Part shown: piece after piece, positions 2,164 through 7,853 of the stretch | Layout: every line of letters begins with the position of its first letter | Position numbering within the stretch: the stretch's first letter is position 1 | Assembly: GCA_947258755.1 (NCBI GenBank) | Contig: CAMYJO010000002.1 | Span: 208,909 to 272,908 of the forward strand | Direction of reading: 5' to 3' | Source of the DNA: an uncultured Gammaproteobacteria bacterium | GTDB taxonomy: Bacteria > Pseudomonadota > Gammaproteobacteria > JAADHQ01 | DNA length: 64,000 bases | Notes under the pieces: generated by a model | Told to the model about the DNA's origin: nothing | Database searches by the model: none | The model's input: the letters and a program-made list of their open reading frames with translations, nothing else | Translations under genes and position numbers: made by a program

Positions 2164-2256
2164 CGGGTGTTTTGATTATCCTGAGTGCTTACTAGCGCTT
2201 GGCAGCGGGACAGGATAAAATACCGCCATTAGATGCTAAATCCACGAGGAAACTCT

Positions 2257-3936
2257 ATGTGTGCTGATGAAACATCATCGACTCCAAGTAATTTTATTCG
2301 TCATATTATTGATGATGACATCAAGGCCAATAAGAACGACGGCAAGGTCGCGACGCGTTTTCCGCCCGAGCCGAATGGCTATCTGCATATCGGCCACGCA
2401 AAATCGATTTGCCTCAATTTTGGCATCGGCAAAGATTATAATGGCACCTGTAACCTGCGTTTTGATGATACCAATCCACACAAAGAAAACCTGGAATTTG
2501 TTGAGGCGATCAAGGAAGATGTGCGCTGGCTGGAATACGATTGGGATGACCGGCTCTTTTATGCATCAGATTATTTTGAAGCGCTGTATCAATTTGCTGT
2601 GCAGTTGGTTGAGAAGCAACTGGCCTATGTCTGTGATCTGAACGCCGAGCAAATAAGGGACTATCGCGGCACCTTGACCGAGCCCGGACGCGACAGTCCC
2701 TACCGCAATCGCACAGTAGAAGAAAACCTTGACCTGTTCAAGCGTATGCGCGACGGCGAGTTCGAGGATGGTAGTAAGGTCTTGAGGGCGAAGATAGACA
2801 TGGCCTCGCCGAATATCAATTTACGCGATCCGACAATCTATCGTATTCGCCATGGCGTCATACATCATCAGACCGGCGAGTCATGGTGTATCTATCCAAT
2901 GTATGACTTTACCCATTGCTTGTCCGATTCCATCGAAGGCATCACGCATTCGCTGTGTACGCTGGAGTTTGAAGATCATCGACCATTGTATGATTGGTTT
3001 CTTGATAGCCTTGATGTCGATTGTCATCCACAACAAATAGAATTTTCAAGGTTGAATCTCGAATACACGGTGACTAGTAAGCGCAAATTGACCGAGTTGG
3101 TAGAGCAGGGTCATGTCGAAGGCTGGGATGATCCGCGTATGCCGACCATAGCCGGTTTGAGACGGCGAGGTTTTACATCCGCGTCCATTCGCGATTTTTG
3201 CAATCGTATCGGTGTGACCAAGGCCGATAACCTGGTCGAAATGGGTGTATTGGAGAGTTGCATTCGTGAAGACCTGAATGACAATGCGCCCAGACGCATG
3301 GCCGTCCTGCATCCGCTCAAGGTGATCTTAAGCAATTACCCTGAGGGCAAGCAGGAAGAGCTACAACCCGCTAACCACCCACAGCATGAGGCTATGGGTA
3401 CGCGTAAGGTGATTATGGAGCGCGAACTTTATATAGACAGGAATGATTTTGCCGAGATACCGCCAAAGAAATTCAAGCGCCTGATCCCTGGCGGTGAAGT
3501 ACGCCTACGTAATGGCTACGTTATCCGTTGCGATGAAGTGATCAAGGATGATAAGGGTGAGGTGATAGAATTACATTGCAGCTATGATGAGGCTACTCTC
3601 GGCGCCAATCCTGAGGGCCGCAAGGTCAAGGGTGTGATCCACTGGCTGTCGGCCAATCATTCGATCAAGGCAGAAATACGTCTGTATGACCGCCTGTTTA
3701 CCCATCCATTACCGGATGCAAGCAAGGAAGGTAAGGATTACAGCGAATACCTGAATCCGGAATCATTGCTGACCCTGACGCAATGTTATGTAGAGGCAAG
3801 TCTCGTCGATGCCCAGCCAGGCGATACCTTTCAGTTTGAGCGCGAGGGTTATTTTAGCCTGGATAAAGCACGATCCGCCAATGACATGCCTGTCTTCAAC
3901 CGCACCGTGACCTTGCGCGATACCTGGAAAAAATAG
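2257..3936 (+). CDS. glnS: glutaminyl-tRNA synthetase
   Basis: [10 protein letters not shown]..., class-I HIGH motif ([14 protein letters not shown]), full GlnS length. I prefer the start at ATG 2257, which has GAGGAAA 6 nt upstream, over the ORF-track start at 2233. Confidence 0.9.
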
Positions 3937-3937
3937 T

Positions 3938-4016
3938 GGCGAGTAGCTAGTGGCTAGTAGCTAGGTGAATGACTCTTTGTTTTTGATTGTCCTAGCCACT
4001 CGCAACTAGCTACTGT
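3938..4016. repeat. large imperfect inverted repeat (arms ~3938-3965 and ~3991-4016) directly after the glnS stop; left arm is built of 7-mer tandems TAGTGGC/TAGTAGC
   Basis: Seen directly: tagtggcgagtagctagtggctagtagctagg versus cctagccactcgcaactagctactg (reverse-complement related), separated by a T-rich loop. Possible glnS terminator structure. Confidence 0.5.
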
Positions 4017-4022
4017 TCTTTG

Positions 4023-4080
4023 GTAGGAGCGGCCCTTGGCCGCGAATCATATAATATCGCGAGCAAGGCTCGCTCCCACA
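4023..4080. repeat. 58-bp palindromic intergenic repeat, copy 1 (REP-like hairpin element)
   Basis: gtaggagcggcccttggccgcgaatcatataatatcgcgagcaaggctcgctcccaca is identical to 4307-4364. Internal ~19-bp imperfect stem (ggagcggcccttggccgcg / cgcgagcaaggctcgctcc) around an AT-rich loop containing TATAAT. Confidence 0.8.
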
Positions 4081-4306
4081 GGGATTGTGTCGGGTTTTTA
4101 TTTGAATGATTTTCACGGATGAAAAAATAACCAGCATAAAAAATACTTTTTCAGCACGCTTGCCTGCTGGATCGTAACTATTCATTTACTCGTAATGGAT
4201 GAGGGGGGCAATGCAGCGGCAGCATTTATGCTGAACTATTGTGAAGCCCAAACAGAAGTCTTGTTAGGTTTTTCGGTTTTTCCTAGCCACCCGCTACTAT
4301 GTTCCA

Positions 4307-4364
4307 GTAGGAGCGGCCCTTGGCCGCGAATCATATAATATCGCGAGCAAGGCTCGCTCCCACA
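4307..4364. repeat. 58-bp palindromic intergenic repeat, copy 2 (direct orientation)
   Basis: Exact copy of 4023-4080. The 5' flank (cctagccacccgctact...) is also related to the 5' flank of copy 1 (3991-4022). Confidence 0.8.
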
Positions 4365-4467
4365 AGAGCTGTGTTAAAAAAGCCATGGAGAAAGATGGTG
4401 TTAGCTGAGGAGTTTTTCACGGCACCATCAAACAGACTACTCTCCATGGCTATAAACTGTTACTAAG

Positions 4468-5061
4468 TCAGTAAGAAGGCCTGTTAAAAAGCCGGGCCAG
4501 CCAGTAATCGATGCTGAAGAACCTTCCCGCGCCGATAAAAAATAATACCAGTAGCATAATGAAGTAGGTTGCCGCGAACTCGATACCATTTTTCAGTACC
4601 GTGATCGATCCATGCTCGGTGATCCATTCATAATTGCTATTTTCCTTGAGGATCTCTCTGGCGCGCTCTTTGCGTATATTGGCTTCCTTGATCTTGTCTT
4701 TTTTCCATTCCCAGGGCACGGTGAGGGTGTCATCCGGGAGCGCATGCCAGCCATTTTCCCAATGCGCAGTGCCGGCAGCGACAGCCATCGTGAACATCAG
4801 CGGAATCGCTATCCAGCGTACGGCCAGGCCTACAAGCAGTAAAATGCCGCCGATTAATTCAGTTAGGCCTGCGAGCCAGACCATTAATTCAGGGGCTGGT
4901 AGACCCAAGGATCCGAAGTACCAGGCGGTGCTTTCTATATTTGATAATTTTCCAAGCCCTGCGTATATGAATATTGGTGCCAGGAAAATTCTCAGCGCCA
5001 GTGGGCCTAGAAAATCGAGGATGCGAGTTTTGTCGAGCAGGTTTTGCAAGGTCGTGAGCAT
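4468..5061 (-). CDS. DoxX-family membrane protein (4th gene of the bufferin-like operon)
   Basis: 197 aa with a hydrophobic DoxX-like N-terminal half (FLAPIFIYAGLGKL..., LAGLTELIGGILLLVGL). Begins 25 nt downstream of the DUF2063 gene on the same strand. Confidence 0.8.
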   Translation of the reverse strand: MLTTLQNLLDKTRILDFLGPLALRIFLAPIFIYAGLGKLSNIESTAWYFGSLGLPAPELMVWLAGLTELIGGILLLVGLAVRWIAIPLMFTMAVAAGTAHWENGWHALPDDTLTVPWEWKKDKIKEANIRKERAREILKENSNYEWITEHGSITVLKNGIEFAATYFIMLLVLFFIGAGRFFSIDYWLARLFNRPSY

Positions 5062-5085: not shown

Positions 5086-5868
5086 TTATCGTGTGCGCAC
5101 GCCCAGTAGAATATCGGCTTCGCGCAATTGCTCCATTATTTCCAGTCCACCGGTTATGACAACGCTAGGGTCTGAATGGTTCAGCTCATCGGCGATATTT
5201 TTTAATAATTGCCCGCCGGTCTGTTCGCTATCCAGTTGCAGGCTTTGGATCATATGTGCTGTCACTGGATTGATTTCCATGAAACCGATTTCATCATCGC
5301 GGTCGCGGTAAACGATCAATGTCGTTATTTGCTCAGGCGGTAATGTGGGTTGATAATCAGGGCCGATATGTTGAACATCAAATTGGTAGCTGAGTAGCCA
5401 GGCCAGCGGTGATAAAACGGGAATGTTCTGCAGAAAATCACCTTGCGGGTCTATGCCGGTCTCATCGATCTCCTGCTCGGCAACGGTCAGTGCCAGCTCG
5501 ACCCATTCGTAATGGGCCAGTTCCTGCATGAATGCAGGATCGTTGCTGTTATCTCGTTCGTTTTCCAGGTAATCGAGAAACTCTTCGGATATTTCCAGAA
5601 AGTAAGGGGTCTTGCAATGATGGCGGGAGAAAAAGTCCCGGACCATGGCGTGCCAGGTTTTATCGTCAGTGAGATCACGCAGAACAGGAAAGCCGCTGGA
5701 AATAAAGCCTTCCACATTATTGTAAAACAGCTCGCGGTAGATACCCATGCGACGATCTTCGACATCATCCGGTTTGCTGTGGATGTCGGGGTTACGTATA
5801 TGCGCAGCAAATTCTAGCTGTTTGCTGATGAATTCTGGCTGCTTATCCTTGTGCGCTTTGCTGTTCAA
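5086..5868 (-). CDS. DUF2063-family protein (BufC-like partner of the MNIO enzyme)
   Basis: LEFAAHIRNPD..., RRMGIYRELFYNNVEGFISSGFPVL is typical of DUF2063. Proposed start is TTG at 5868 with GGAG 6 nt upstream. The ORF-track ATG at 6033 would overlap the DUF692 gene by 190 nt. Confidence 0.7.
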   Translation of the reverse strand: MNSKAHKDKQPEFISKQLEFAAHIRNPDIHSKPDDVEDRRMGIYRELFYNNVEGFISSGFPVLRDLTDDKTWHAMVRDFFSRHHCKTPYFLEISEEFLDYLENERDNSNDPAFMQELAHYEWVELALTVAEQEIDETGIDPQGDFLQNIPVLSPLAWLLSYQFDVQHIGPDYQPTLPPEQITTLIVYRDRDDEIGFMEINPVTAHMIQSLQLDSEQTGGQLLKNIADELNHSDPSVVITGGLEIMEQLREADILLGVRTR

Positions 5869-6710: not shown

Positions 6711-7244
6711 TTATTTCTTGCCGCCGCATTTGCCTTCACCACATTTGCCTTCTTTGGCTTTTTCCATCTTTTCAGAGCCTTTCATGCCGCCACATTTACC
6801 TTCGCCACATTTACCTTCCATGCCTTTTTTCTTGGCGTTTTTGTACATTTTCTTTTCTTCCATGGTGATCATGCCATCTTTGTTGGCATCCATACGATCG
6901 AACTTGCTTGCATGGTAGGCATCAAATTCAGCACGACTAACACTACCGTCACCGTCTTTATCCATTTTATTCATCATCTTGCCGCCGCATTTGCCCTGTT
7001 TGGCTTTCATGCCGCCGCACTTACCTTCGCCGCATTTGCCTTCTTTGGCTTTCTCGGTTTTCATGCCGCCGCATTTGCCTTCACCACATTTACCTTCCAT
7101 AGCAGCAATCTGCATATAGCCACTGCTGAGTTGTGTGGCGGAGAAAGGATTTTCATTGGCCTGTACTGCAGAGCTTGCAGTCACAGACAGGAATGCTGCA
7201 CCCAGTGCAGCCGCCAGAGGTTTTTGCGTATACTTCTTAGCCAT
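6711..7244 (-). CDS. secreted Cys-repeat RiPP precursor candidate (bufferin-like) with two EF-hand loops
   Basis: Start ATG 7244 has GAGGAG 8 nt upstream. Sec signal peptide ends AVQA|NE. Four EGKCGEGKCGG repeats plus one GKCGG give 9 Cys. Two canonical EF-hand loops, DKDGDGSVSRAE and DANKDGMITMEE, sit between the repeat blocks. Immediately upstream of DUF692. Confidence 0.75.
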   Translation of the reverse strand: MAKKYTQKPLAAALGAAFLSVTASSAVQANENPFSATQLSSGYMQIAAMEGKCGEGKCGGMKTEKAKEGKCGEGKCGGMKAKQGKCGGKMMNKMDKDGDGSVSRAEFDAYHASKFDRMDANKDGMITMEEKKMYKNAKKKGMEGKCGEGKCGGMKGSEKMEKAKEGKCGEGKCGGKK

Positions 7245-7415
7245 ATTTGTGCTCCTCGAGGATAATAATATATTAAAGTTGACCAATTAATTCTGTATCA
7301 GGCCGGTCTTCAGTGGTTGCAGCATCATGACTGCAGCGACTGTCTTGCCTTGAATGATAGGACTTGATCATTTACAGGAAGTTTCATTATAGGGGCAAAA
7401 AATCACAAATTTATA

Positions 7416-7853
7416 TCAAATTTTATCGATTAATCGCTTCAGGCAGTGGATATAGGTCAGTTCGTCAGGTAATTGACTATTATTTTGCGCCTGCCACAAA
7501 CTTTCACCAAGGCATTCCATCATCGCATGCTCGGCTTCATGTGGGTCACCGGCCTTTATTAGTATTTGTTGATATAGCTGTGTAATGCCGGATGGACGGT
7601 CTGTGCTGAATTGTTCGCGCAGACTGATGTGCATACCCATGTGCAGGAACGGATTGGTTTGACCCTGTTCCGGCAGGTAGTCCTGGTCGAGGTCATCAAG
7701 TTCGTTCTCCAGCATGGATTGATATTCCGGATGCATACTGACGACTTCGGCAATCATATTTTCCAGTGCCTCTATTGGTTGGCGGTTTTTGTATTTTAGC
7801 CACGCAGATCTGAACAGGTTTCTGATCTGATTTTTGTCCTGACCAACTATCAT
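7416..7853 (-). CDS. DUF1841-family protein
   Basis: 145 aa conserved hypothetical protein. Directly follows nth with a 3-nt gap on the same strand. Confidence 0.6.
   Translation of the reverse strand: MIVGQDKNQIRNLFRSAWLKYKNRQPIEALENMIAEVVSMHPEYQSMLENELDDLDQDYLPEQGQTNPFLHMGMHISLREQFSTDRPSGITQLYQQILIKAGDPHEAEHAMMECLGESLWQAQNNSQLPDELTYIHCLKRLIDKI

Follow-up and report, generated by a model that had tools for sequence, protein, structure and literature searches.

An EF-hand pair between the EGKCG modules of an HvfA-family peptide precursor in an uncultured gammaproteobacterium

The window considered here, a stretch of 64,000 nucleotides from contig CAMYJO010000002.1 of an uncultured Gammaproteobacteria bacterium (assembly GCA_947258755.1), carries a complete hvfA-hvfB-hvfC-hvfX operon on its minus strand, with reported gaps of at most 13 nt or overlaps between the genes (Table 1). 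The first gene encodes an HvfA-type peptide precursor in which a pair of EF-hands lies between two groups of Cys-Gly repeats, and it is this protein that is the subject of the analysis. The remaining genes encode HvfB, a peptide maturase belonging to the oxidative enzymes that depend on multinuclear non-heme iron (MNIO; DUF692); HvfC, a DUF2063 partner that contains a recognition element (RRE) for peptides that are ribosomally synthesized and then modified post-translationally (RiPPs); and HvfX, a membrane protein of the DoxX family.

Table 1. Positions of the hvf genes in the window and of the features of the precursor gene
Feature	Position (nt)	Strand	Basis or remarks
hvfA-type precursor gene	6711-7244	-	177 codons plus stop; ATG at 7244, stop 6711-6713; open reading frame translation
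Precursor layout: signal peptide, NPF..SGYM box, EGKCG module, EF-hand pair, EGKCG module			conserved in homologue alignments
Shine-Dalgarno sequence GAGGAG	7252-7257	-	7 nt 5' of precursor ATG; read from sequence
Putative Sec-type signal peptide, residues 1-29, MAKKYTQKPLAAALGAAFLSVTASSAVQA	7158-7244	-	sequence inspection only; AxA site before NENPF
Conserved N-box, residues 30-49, NENPFSATQLSSGYMQIAAM	7098-7157	-	alignment of 83 sequences
N-terminal metallophore module, residues 50-88	6981-7097	-	two EGKCGEGKCGG units plus lone QGKCGG; Cys 53, 58, 71, 76, 86
EF-hand cassette, residues ~89-140	6825-6980	-	Pfam, AlphaFold2 model, absence from L082 orthologue
C-terminal metallophore module, residues 143-175	6720-6818	-	two EGKCGEGKCGG units; Cys 146, 151, 168, 173
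Upstream intergenic region	7245-7415	-	conserved blocks in two related loci
hvfB, MNIO (DUF692) peptide maturase, 284 aa	5843-6697	-	starts 13 nt past precursor stop; PF05114 (MbnB_TglH_ChrH) 361.5 bits; NF003818 (HvfB family) 455.9 bits vs cut-off 360
hvfC, DUF2063/RRE partner	5086-5868	-	NF050145 322.3 bits vs cut-off 142; Pfam DUF2063 and NGO1945_C
hvfX, DoxX-family membrane protein	4468-5061	-	NF050144 195.5 bits vs cut-off 80; Pfam DoxX

Translation of the first gene confirms what an initial annotation of the window had read from it: a protein of 177 residues with nine Cys, two blocks of repeats, and, between them, two EF-hand loops at the positions given below. The ATG at 7244 as the start is supported by the strong Shine-Dalgarno sequence 7 nt upstream, and the AGGAGCA of this element is kept in the alignment with two related loci. 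The same annotation took the protein to be secreted, and inspection of its N-terminus agrees with this idea. A basic n-region (KK..K) is followed by a hydrophobic core (PLAAALGAAFLSV) and by an AxA site, with predicted cleavage between VQA and NE, and this feature is kept across an alignment of 83 homologues that share the "sandwich" layout, that is, an EF pair flanked by Cys-Gly motifs on either side. Next comes the N-box, present also in EF-less HvfA homologues, in which P33 and F34 are invariant and N32, G42, and Y43 are at least 90% conserved among the 83 sequences. This segment probably helps HvfC to recognize the precursor.

Exact EGKCGEGKCGG units are found four times (residues 50 to 60, 68 to 78, 143 to 153, and 165 to 175, after which the protein ends with KK), and a lone fifth motif, QGKCGG, is present at residues 83 to 88. 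Unit starts lie 18 residues apart in the N-terminal module and 22 apart in the C-terminal module. The alignment of sandwich proteins shows little or no variation in either Cys module, in the NPF..GY box, in the loop ligands, or at C86; residues E50 to G59 and E165 to G174 are at least 90% conserved, and C86, the Cys of the lone motif (nt 6987-6989), is invariant, yet without a partner Cys in the window protein. It lies 9 residues before the first EF loop, rather than the 6 residues seen in most homologues. The mature protein consists of 21% Lys, 20% Gly, and 9.5% Met, a high Met content being typical of periplasmic proteins that handle Cu(I). The NCBIfam profile NF050137 (KCGExKCG_twice), whose name is "HvfA family oxazolone/thioamide-modified RiPP metallophore," matches the precursor in three stretches with 55 bits against a cut-off of 19.5. 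By sequence, the precursor is a member of the family variously called HvfA, Buf_EGKCG/oxazolin, and captophorin, the last being a class name coined in PMC13097082.

The EF-hand pair sits between units 2 and 3. Loop 1 (DKDGDGSVSRAE; residues 95 to 106, nt 6927-6962) and loop 2 (DANKDGMITMEE; residues 119 to 130, nt 6855-6890) are separated by an inter-loop helix of 12 residues. Four Pfam models score above their gathering cut-offs: EF-hand_5, which is the best match (37.4 bits versus 25.9, E=1.4e-9), EF-hand_1 (33.4 versus 25.4), EF-hand_7 (31.5 versus 30), and EF-hand_6 (28.4 versus 25). Both loops had been described as textbook EF-hands, and as far as their own residues go, this is correct: in each, the ligands at positions 1, 3, 5, and 9 are acidic or polar, position 6 is Gly, position 8 is hydrophobic, and position 12 is Glu. 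However, only loop 1 matches the PROSITE pattern PS00018 strictly; loop 2 misses it solely at K131, the residue after the loop. D95, E106, D119, and E130 are invariant among the 83 sequences, and when the mature sequence was shuffled, only 43 of 20,000 shuffles contained one or more EF-loop patterns. In addition, a His in the inter-loop helix (His111 here, nt 6912-6914) is present in 88 of the 89 homologues with 12-residue spacing, though not in proteins of the EfhP type considered below. His111 and C86 could together form an extra set of metal ligands. The proposed combination of an EF-hand pair with MNIO-type Cys-Gly motifs is thus borne out by the Pfam and NF050137 matches and by the presence of hvfB, hvfC, and hvfX directly downstream.

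An AlphaFold2 model of the precursor, run with the 83-sequence alignment, has high confidence (a predicted local distance difference test score of 88 to 96) only at residues ~88 to 146. Here helices at residues 88 to 94, 104 to 118, and 128 to 146 flank both loops in a helix-loop-helix arrangement. The signal peptide and all of the KCG repeats score below 50, and the repeats are treated as disordered. By analogy with characterized relatives, the pair would be expected to bind Ca2+ in the periplasm.

Comparison with orthologous loci reveals how the EF pair is placed in the gene. Full synteny with the window is seen in two metagenomic contigs, L082 and L083, which share the order rnfC-D-G-E, nth, DUF1841, precursor, hvfB (MNIO), hvfC, doxX, glnS, gloA, GGDEF, and their flanking proteins are mostly 75-80% identical to those of the window, with lower values for DUF1841 (63%) and HvfX (53%). 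The precursor at these loci (P0018, 117 residues) has four EGKCGEGKCGG units, of which units 3 and 4 align with the C-terminal module of the window protein, and its signal peptide and N-box are 79% identical to the window's over the first 56 residues, but EF-hands are absent. Alignment of the window gene with the L082 DNA locates ~60 extra codons at residues ~79 to 139, between units 2 and 3. Because the syntenic orthologue has the same four-unit precursor without these codons, the EF pair is an in-frame cassette. A closer relative, L081, whose HvfB is 85% identical, bears the pair at the same place, and other close relatives (P0011 and L010) are without it. In a neighbor-joining tree of HvfB from 68 loci, which has no bootstrap support, the subtype found in the window is scattered among EF-less clades, a clade of Lysobacterales and Pseudomonas is uniformly EF-bearing, and the EfhP type is nested inside the sandwich types; such a topology is suggestive, a hint only. 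Among the findings that would count against its reading, the initial annotation had named close homologues that lack the EF insert and fall into a characterized precursor family, and one such orthologue does exist. It makes the insert a cassette in a known precursor rather than an artefact.

The sandwich layout is widespread. Among the 120 best database homologues, 85 have it, 33 are plain repeat precursors, and 2 have only N-terminal motifs. In a second set, 80 loci from species-representative genomes, plain precursors are the most numerous (47), followed by sandwich proteins (25) and N-only proteins (7). The GTDB species representatives contain no near-identical match, the best one reaching 51%. 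The hosts of the sandwich loci include Lysobacterales genera, Thiobacillus, many uncultured Gammaproteobacteria, and two Pseudomonas. The EfhP type accounts for the N-only loci, which come from Pseudomonas and Stenotrophomonas and have a tail free of Cys. In 22 of the 25 sandwich loci, the next gene downstream codes for an HvfB homologue, and the order precursor-MNIO-partner is kept in 41 of the 47 EF-less loci. Some longer relatives of 218 to 234 residues (P0014, P0015, P0026, and P0038) alternate a KCG module, an EF pair, another KCG module, and a second EF pair, ending with or without a final KCG module. This alternation indicates that EF pairs and KCG units act as shuffleable modules. A search of a representative library was of little use for counting architectures, since 100 of its 144 new matches are generic multi-EF-hand proteins without KCG motifs; among its matches with both features, the KEEK type numbers 12 and the KEE type 2.

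What becomes of such precursors is known best from a few related systems. HvfA of nontypeable Haemophilus influenzae consists of a signal peptide and three AEGKCGEGKCG units, and HvfB together with HvfC oxidizes its six Cys (-4 Da each), after which ~1 Cu(I) is bound per pair (PMC11252979). The modification of the HvfA Cys has since been reassigned to 5-thiooxazole (bioRxiv 10.64898/2026.06.05.730506; PMC13097082). Thiooxazole formation and Cu(I) binding have been demonstrated only for HvfA, FonA, and NgoA (PMC11252979; PMC13097082). Work with FonBC indicates that the minimal substrate needs two repeats and that a small residue is preferred after the Cys (PMC13097082). HvfA and the bufferin precursors are exported by Sec (PMC11252979, PMC12452194).

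The sequence features, the family membership by profile, the operon, the conserved sandwich layout with its MNIO neighbor, and the cassette nature of the EF pair are all directly established. Taken together, they make it quite probable that the window gene encodes the precursor of a Sec-exported, MNIO-modified, Cu-binding peptide with an in-frame EF-hand cassette between units 2 and 3. By analogy with the systems above, hvfA-hvfB-hvfC-hvfX would be transcribed from the minus strand, and a cytoplasmic HvfB-HvfC complex would engage the unfolded precursor, probably aided by the NPF..SGYM box. The KCG Cys on both sides of the EF segment would then be oxidized to 5-thiooxazoles, with a change of -4 Da per Cys, before export by Sec and removal of the signal peptide behind VQA29. 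Once in the periplasm, the EGKCGEGKCG pairs would be expected to bind ~1 Cu(I) each, ~4 sites in all, with a less certain status for Cys86. The EF pair, for its part, would bind Ca2+ and fold into the only ordered segment, acting between the two flexible Cu-binding arms as a scaffold or sensor that depends on Ca. Here Ca2+ may gate the binding of copper, be reported on in an EfhP-like manner, or simply stabilize or space the arms.

Several points weigh against a modified, copper-binding precursor of this kind. The protein misses the HvfA equivalog model NF050188 (62.4 versus a cut-off of 95); the EF-less syntenic orthologue falls below it as well (76.3), and thus NF050188 is narrower than the family and NF050137 is the relevant model. 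Neither the 177-residue protein nor a 191-residue form that starts at a TTG (6711-7286) is present in a collection of 15 billion proteins, which does contain the exact neighbor proteins HvfB, HvfX, DUF1841, and MetG, though only as singletons that all stem from one NCBI contig. There is consequently no independent gene call for the precursor, which may have gone uncalled, or been called otherwise, in the source annotation. The cleavage site of the signal peptide has been judged by eye only. A Foldseek comparison of the AlphaFold2 model with the PDB returns only weak EF-hand matches (E at least 0.16), which support nothing more specific than the label EF-hand. Since FonBC left a peptide with a single EGKCG repeat unmodified in vitro (PMC13097082), the lone Cys86 may stay unmodified. 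Finally, the literature that could be searched holds no report of modification, Cu binding, or Ca binding for an MNIO-modified member that bears EF-hands.

Other explanations of the locus differ widely in how well they fare. The precursor gene might be an assembly or annotation artefact, arising from collapse or expansion of its repeats or from a chimeric join of hvfA with an EF-hand gene; internal repeats are indeed present, and the exact protein is missing from the large collection. However, the repeats, which had been called near-identical, are so only as protein, where there are four exact units. As DNA they have diverged: identity among the four 51-nt copies is 78-88%, the 33-nt units agree at 28 to 32 of 33 bases, and the longest exact internal direct repeat, 28 nt, is well below any modern read length. 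Moreover, the reading frame, the Shine-Dalgarno sequence, and the operon spacing are intact, the same layout is present in 85 of the 120 database homologues and in 25 genome loci from many lineages, and L081 has the insert at the same place. The concern that the repeats pose an assembly and recombination hazard is therefore weak, given repeats diverged as DNA and a layout that recurs in more than 100 independent sequences. An assembly artefact is rejected on these grounds as very unlikely, and the probability of an artefact of any of these kinds is close to nil. It is also hard to credit, at a low probability, that the Cys repeats are left unmodified as a metallothionein-like thiolate buffer and that the neighboring MNIO acts elsewhere. 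Nothing specific speaks for such a buffer beyond the use of recombinant, unmodified protein in the EfhP studies (PMC9132961), while the precursor-MNIO-partner order recurs in both sandwich loci (22 of 25) and EF-less loci (41 of 47), the cognate MNIO has modified each EGKCG precursor that was tested, and the KCG context, with Lys before the Cys and a small residue after it, fits the FonBC rules. Still less credible is a lanmodulin-like EF pair that serves as a lanthanide site rather than a Ca2+ site. Short inter-loop spacing of 12 residues is known from lanmodulin, and the window protein has the same spacing, along with weak matches to structures 6mi5 and 8fns (E ~7e-4) and to the profile NF053806. 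Yet NF053806 gives only 22.6 bits against a cut-off of 135, there are two loops rather than four, and no lanthanide-dependent genes such as xoxF are seen near the operon. In addition, Pro at loop position 2 is a hallmark of lanmodulin, and this position is Lys or Ala in the window protein. The lanmodulin-like reading is rejected on its profile score and loop sequence.

The remaining alternatives differ in what the EF pair is for. One would give the protein an EfhP-like main role, that of a Ca2+ sensor in the periplasm, in which Ca2+ exposes a surface for signaling to a partner and the Cys motifs provide a second input (Cu, Fe, or redox) instead of bulk Cu sequestration. EfhP, which likewise has EGKCG motifs, two EF-hands, and DUF692/DUF2063 neighbors, binds Ca2+, changes conformation, and controls virulence and iron-uptake genes (PMC4053335, PMC11559002, PMC9132961); the window protein is 40% identical to the EfhP-type homologue L039 over 139 residues; and a role in Ca homeostasis or signaling has been suggested for the fusions (PMC12452194). 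Nevertheless, a role mainly as a sensor is unlikely. The EfhP type has 15-residue spacing, no inter-loop His, and a Cys-free tail in place of a C-terminal EGKCG module, 8 of the 9 Cys of the window protein lie in canonical metallophore units, and at the orthologous locus of a related organism a plain four-unit precursor suffices, an argument for placing the core function in the repeats. Somewhat better placed, though still doubtful, is the idea that the EF pair is a passive spacer or solubility module, constitutively loaded with Ca and free of Ca2+ regulation, that parts the Cu arms or promotes dimerization. The pair is the only confidently folded segment in the AlphaFold2 model, and its cassette has been gained or lost among close relatives. 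Cu-loaded EGKCG peptides tend to aggregate in vitro (PMC13097082), a tendency that a folded, charged spacer could counter. Among the best structural matches are polcalcin Che a 3, EhCaBP1, and 1ht9, EF proteins that are extended or domain-swapped, but these matches are weak and statistically insignificant, and metal binding itself seems to be under selection, to judge from how strongly the loop ligands and His111 are conserved. At the other extreme, the protein could be a two-metal switch, in which Ca2+ folds the central module, joins the thiooxazole arms, and so gates capture or release of Cu(I) or oligomerization, and in which His111 and Cys86 might take part. Such a switch is a speculative and rather improbable elaboration; if true, Ca2+-gated coupling would be undescribed for any RiPP metallophore.

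Separate groups have worked on the EGKCG metallophores (oxazolin, captophorins) and on EfhP as a Ca2+ sensor, and proteins like that of the window show both to belong to a single modular family. An implication of the sandwich layout is that Cys motifs flanking a foldable domain on either side can be processed by an MNIO-partner complex prior to Sec export. Orthologous loci that differ in the EF cassette, but otherwise share the same operon in the same place, offer a clean comparison for the contribution of Ca2+ to a Cu-binding RiPP, and the question is raised whether the published phenotypes of EfhP depend on MNIO modification. The practical novelty of the protein is limited, as the fusion class is published, an NCBI profile already provides a name for proteins of this kind, and metagenomes commonly contain the layout.

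Some details of the operon and its surroundings complete the picture. hvfC probably starts at the TTG at 5866-5868, so that its first 26 nt would overlap the 3' end of hvfB, as judged from an alignment with the HvfC of L082, where the overlap is 20 nt, and from the codon table; a longer, ATG-started open reading frame that reaches 6033 is probably not used. The region of ~170 nt 5' of hvfA has a mean column identity of 79% across three loci (window 7245-7415, L082 4835-5000, and L081 296-461), with conserved blocks TTGTGATTTTT..CCTATAATGAA (including TATAAT at 7386-7391), AGTCCTAT, TTAAGGCAAG, and AATGGTCAA. Such conservation may reflect an operon promoter together with a long leader or operator. 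A scan for consensus promoters and terminators found no convincing operon promoter or σ70 consensus upstream of hvfA, and Rfam and tRNA scans of the window gave no matches, the upstream region included.

On one side, the operon is flanked by glnS, gloA, and a gene for a GGDEF-EAL protein, and on the other by a DUF1841 gene, nth, the rnf operon, and metG. The DUF1841 gene (7416-7853, minus strand) adjoins the precursor upstream on the same strand, and this adjacency is found also in L010, L013, L018, L066, L077, and L082/L083, reflecting either synteny within the lineage or a functional link. For glnS (2233-3936, plus strand), the exact protein from the listed ATG at 2233 is not on record, and its alignment with the orthologue begins only at residue 13, so that a downstream Met at ~2257 is probably the true start. 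Within the gap between glnS and hvfX (3937-4467), an element of ~92 nt is present twice (3999-4090 and 4283-4374). The two copies are 85% identical, share an identical 58-nt core (4023-4080 and 4307-4364), and contain two GC-rich hairpins each, which gives them the look of repetitive extragenic palindromic (REP) sequences or of miniature inverted-repeat transposable elements (MITEs); only these two copies are present within the 64-kb window. Two tandem copies of a 14-nt sequence, TAGTGGCGAGTAGC, occupy 3934-3961, and inverted repeats lie at 3942-4014.

Among known systems, the bufferins Buf1 (DUF2282) and Buf2 resemble the window system in general design. They, too, are Sec-exported, Cu-binding thiooxazole RiPPs that depend on an MNIO and a DUF2063 protein and are accompanied by DoxX genes, and their MNIOs belong to the same large cluster of sequences. 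However, the fold and motifs of their precursors differ, and a Pfam search finds no DUF2282 match in the window protein. The window MNIO scores below the cut-offs of both the bufferin model BufB (276.8 versus 310) and the methanobactin model MbnB (41.9 versus 325). Lanmodulin and other periplasmic EF-hand proteins share with the window protein closely spaced loops, a small size, export, and weak sequence matches, but the window protein carries Cys-Gly metallophore repeats and belongs to an MNIO operon.

The likeness to hvfABCX of H. influenzae is much closer, since the same four families, HvfA, HvfB, HvfC, and HvfX, make up the operon, the last three with family profiles above cut-off. Both HvfA and the window protein have a Sec signal peptide, an N-region of ~20 residues, and repeated (A)EGKCGEGKCG units, and conversion of Cys to 5-thiooxazole with ~1 Cu(I) per pair would thus be expected for the window protein by analogy. 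In contrast, HvfA is a protein of 95 residues with three units, two extra N-terminal Cys that form a disulfide, and no EF-hands, while in the window protein there are four units and a lone KCGG, the N-region is free of Cys, and a two-EF-hand cassette of ~60 residues lies between units 2 and 3. Gene order differs as well: doxX lies upstream of hvfA in H. influenzae, judging from gene numbering, and downstream in the window operon. Fontiphorin, gonophorin, and other captophorins share the Lys-Cys group, the EGKCG 5-mer, the MNIO and PME1 (DUF2063-RRE) partner, often a DoxX protein, and copper binding, with up to four Cu on FonA (PMC13097082). No EF-hand or other folded domain is reported within the characterized precursors, and the term "EF-hand" occurs 0 times in PMC13097082.

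The fusion of EGKCG motifs with EF-hands is, nevertheless, an already published class. Approximately 2,000 Buf_EGKCG/oxazolin precursors fall into two types, one consisting of repeat arrays and the other an EF-hand chimera with a short EGKCG stretch without 17-residue repeats, a predicted transmembrane helix, and C-terminal EF-hands (PMC12452194). EfhP (PA4107) of P. aeruginosa, studied since 2014, adjoins genes for DUF692 and DUF2063 proteins, with conflicting predictions for its N-terminus (PMC4053335). It has two EF-hands and binds Ca2+ with a dissociation constant of 13.7 uM (PMC9132961), and it has been noted to contain four EGKCG motifs (PMC11559002). Given these fusions, EfhP, and the naming of NF050137, the statement in the initial annotation that the composite was unrecognized among MNIO substrates does not stand. 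Like the window protein, EfhP and the chimeras have EGKCG motifs followed by two EF-hand_5 loops, are exported, and are encoded upstream of DUF692 and DUF2063 genes. Sandwich proteins are almost certainly inside the published data sets, because such proteins are in NCBI nr. A description of the layout in words was not found in the literature that could be searched.

The differences from the published chimera lie in the arrangement. The EfhP-type loci (L017, L031, L039, L045, L060, L065, and L075) have no Cys after the EF pair, the tail reading ..GKPMPKGLFS.. In the window protein, repeat units instead flank the EF pair on either side, in addition to the 12-residue spacing and His111. Thus, two features of the published type, lacking 17-residue repeats and having C-terminal EF-hands with a Cys-free tail, are absent from the window protein, and where the chimera is predicted to keep an uncleaved N-terminal transmembrane helix, the window protein has, by inspection, an AxA cleavage motif. 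The sandwich layout with its 12-residue spacing and conserved His, and the evidence from orthologous loci for an EF cassette, go modestly beyond the published description of this class.

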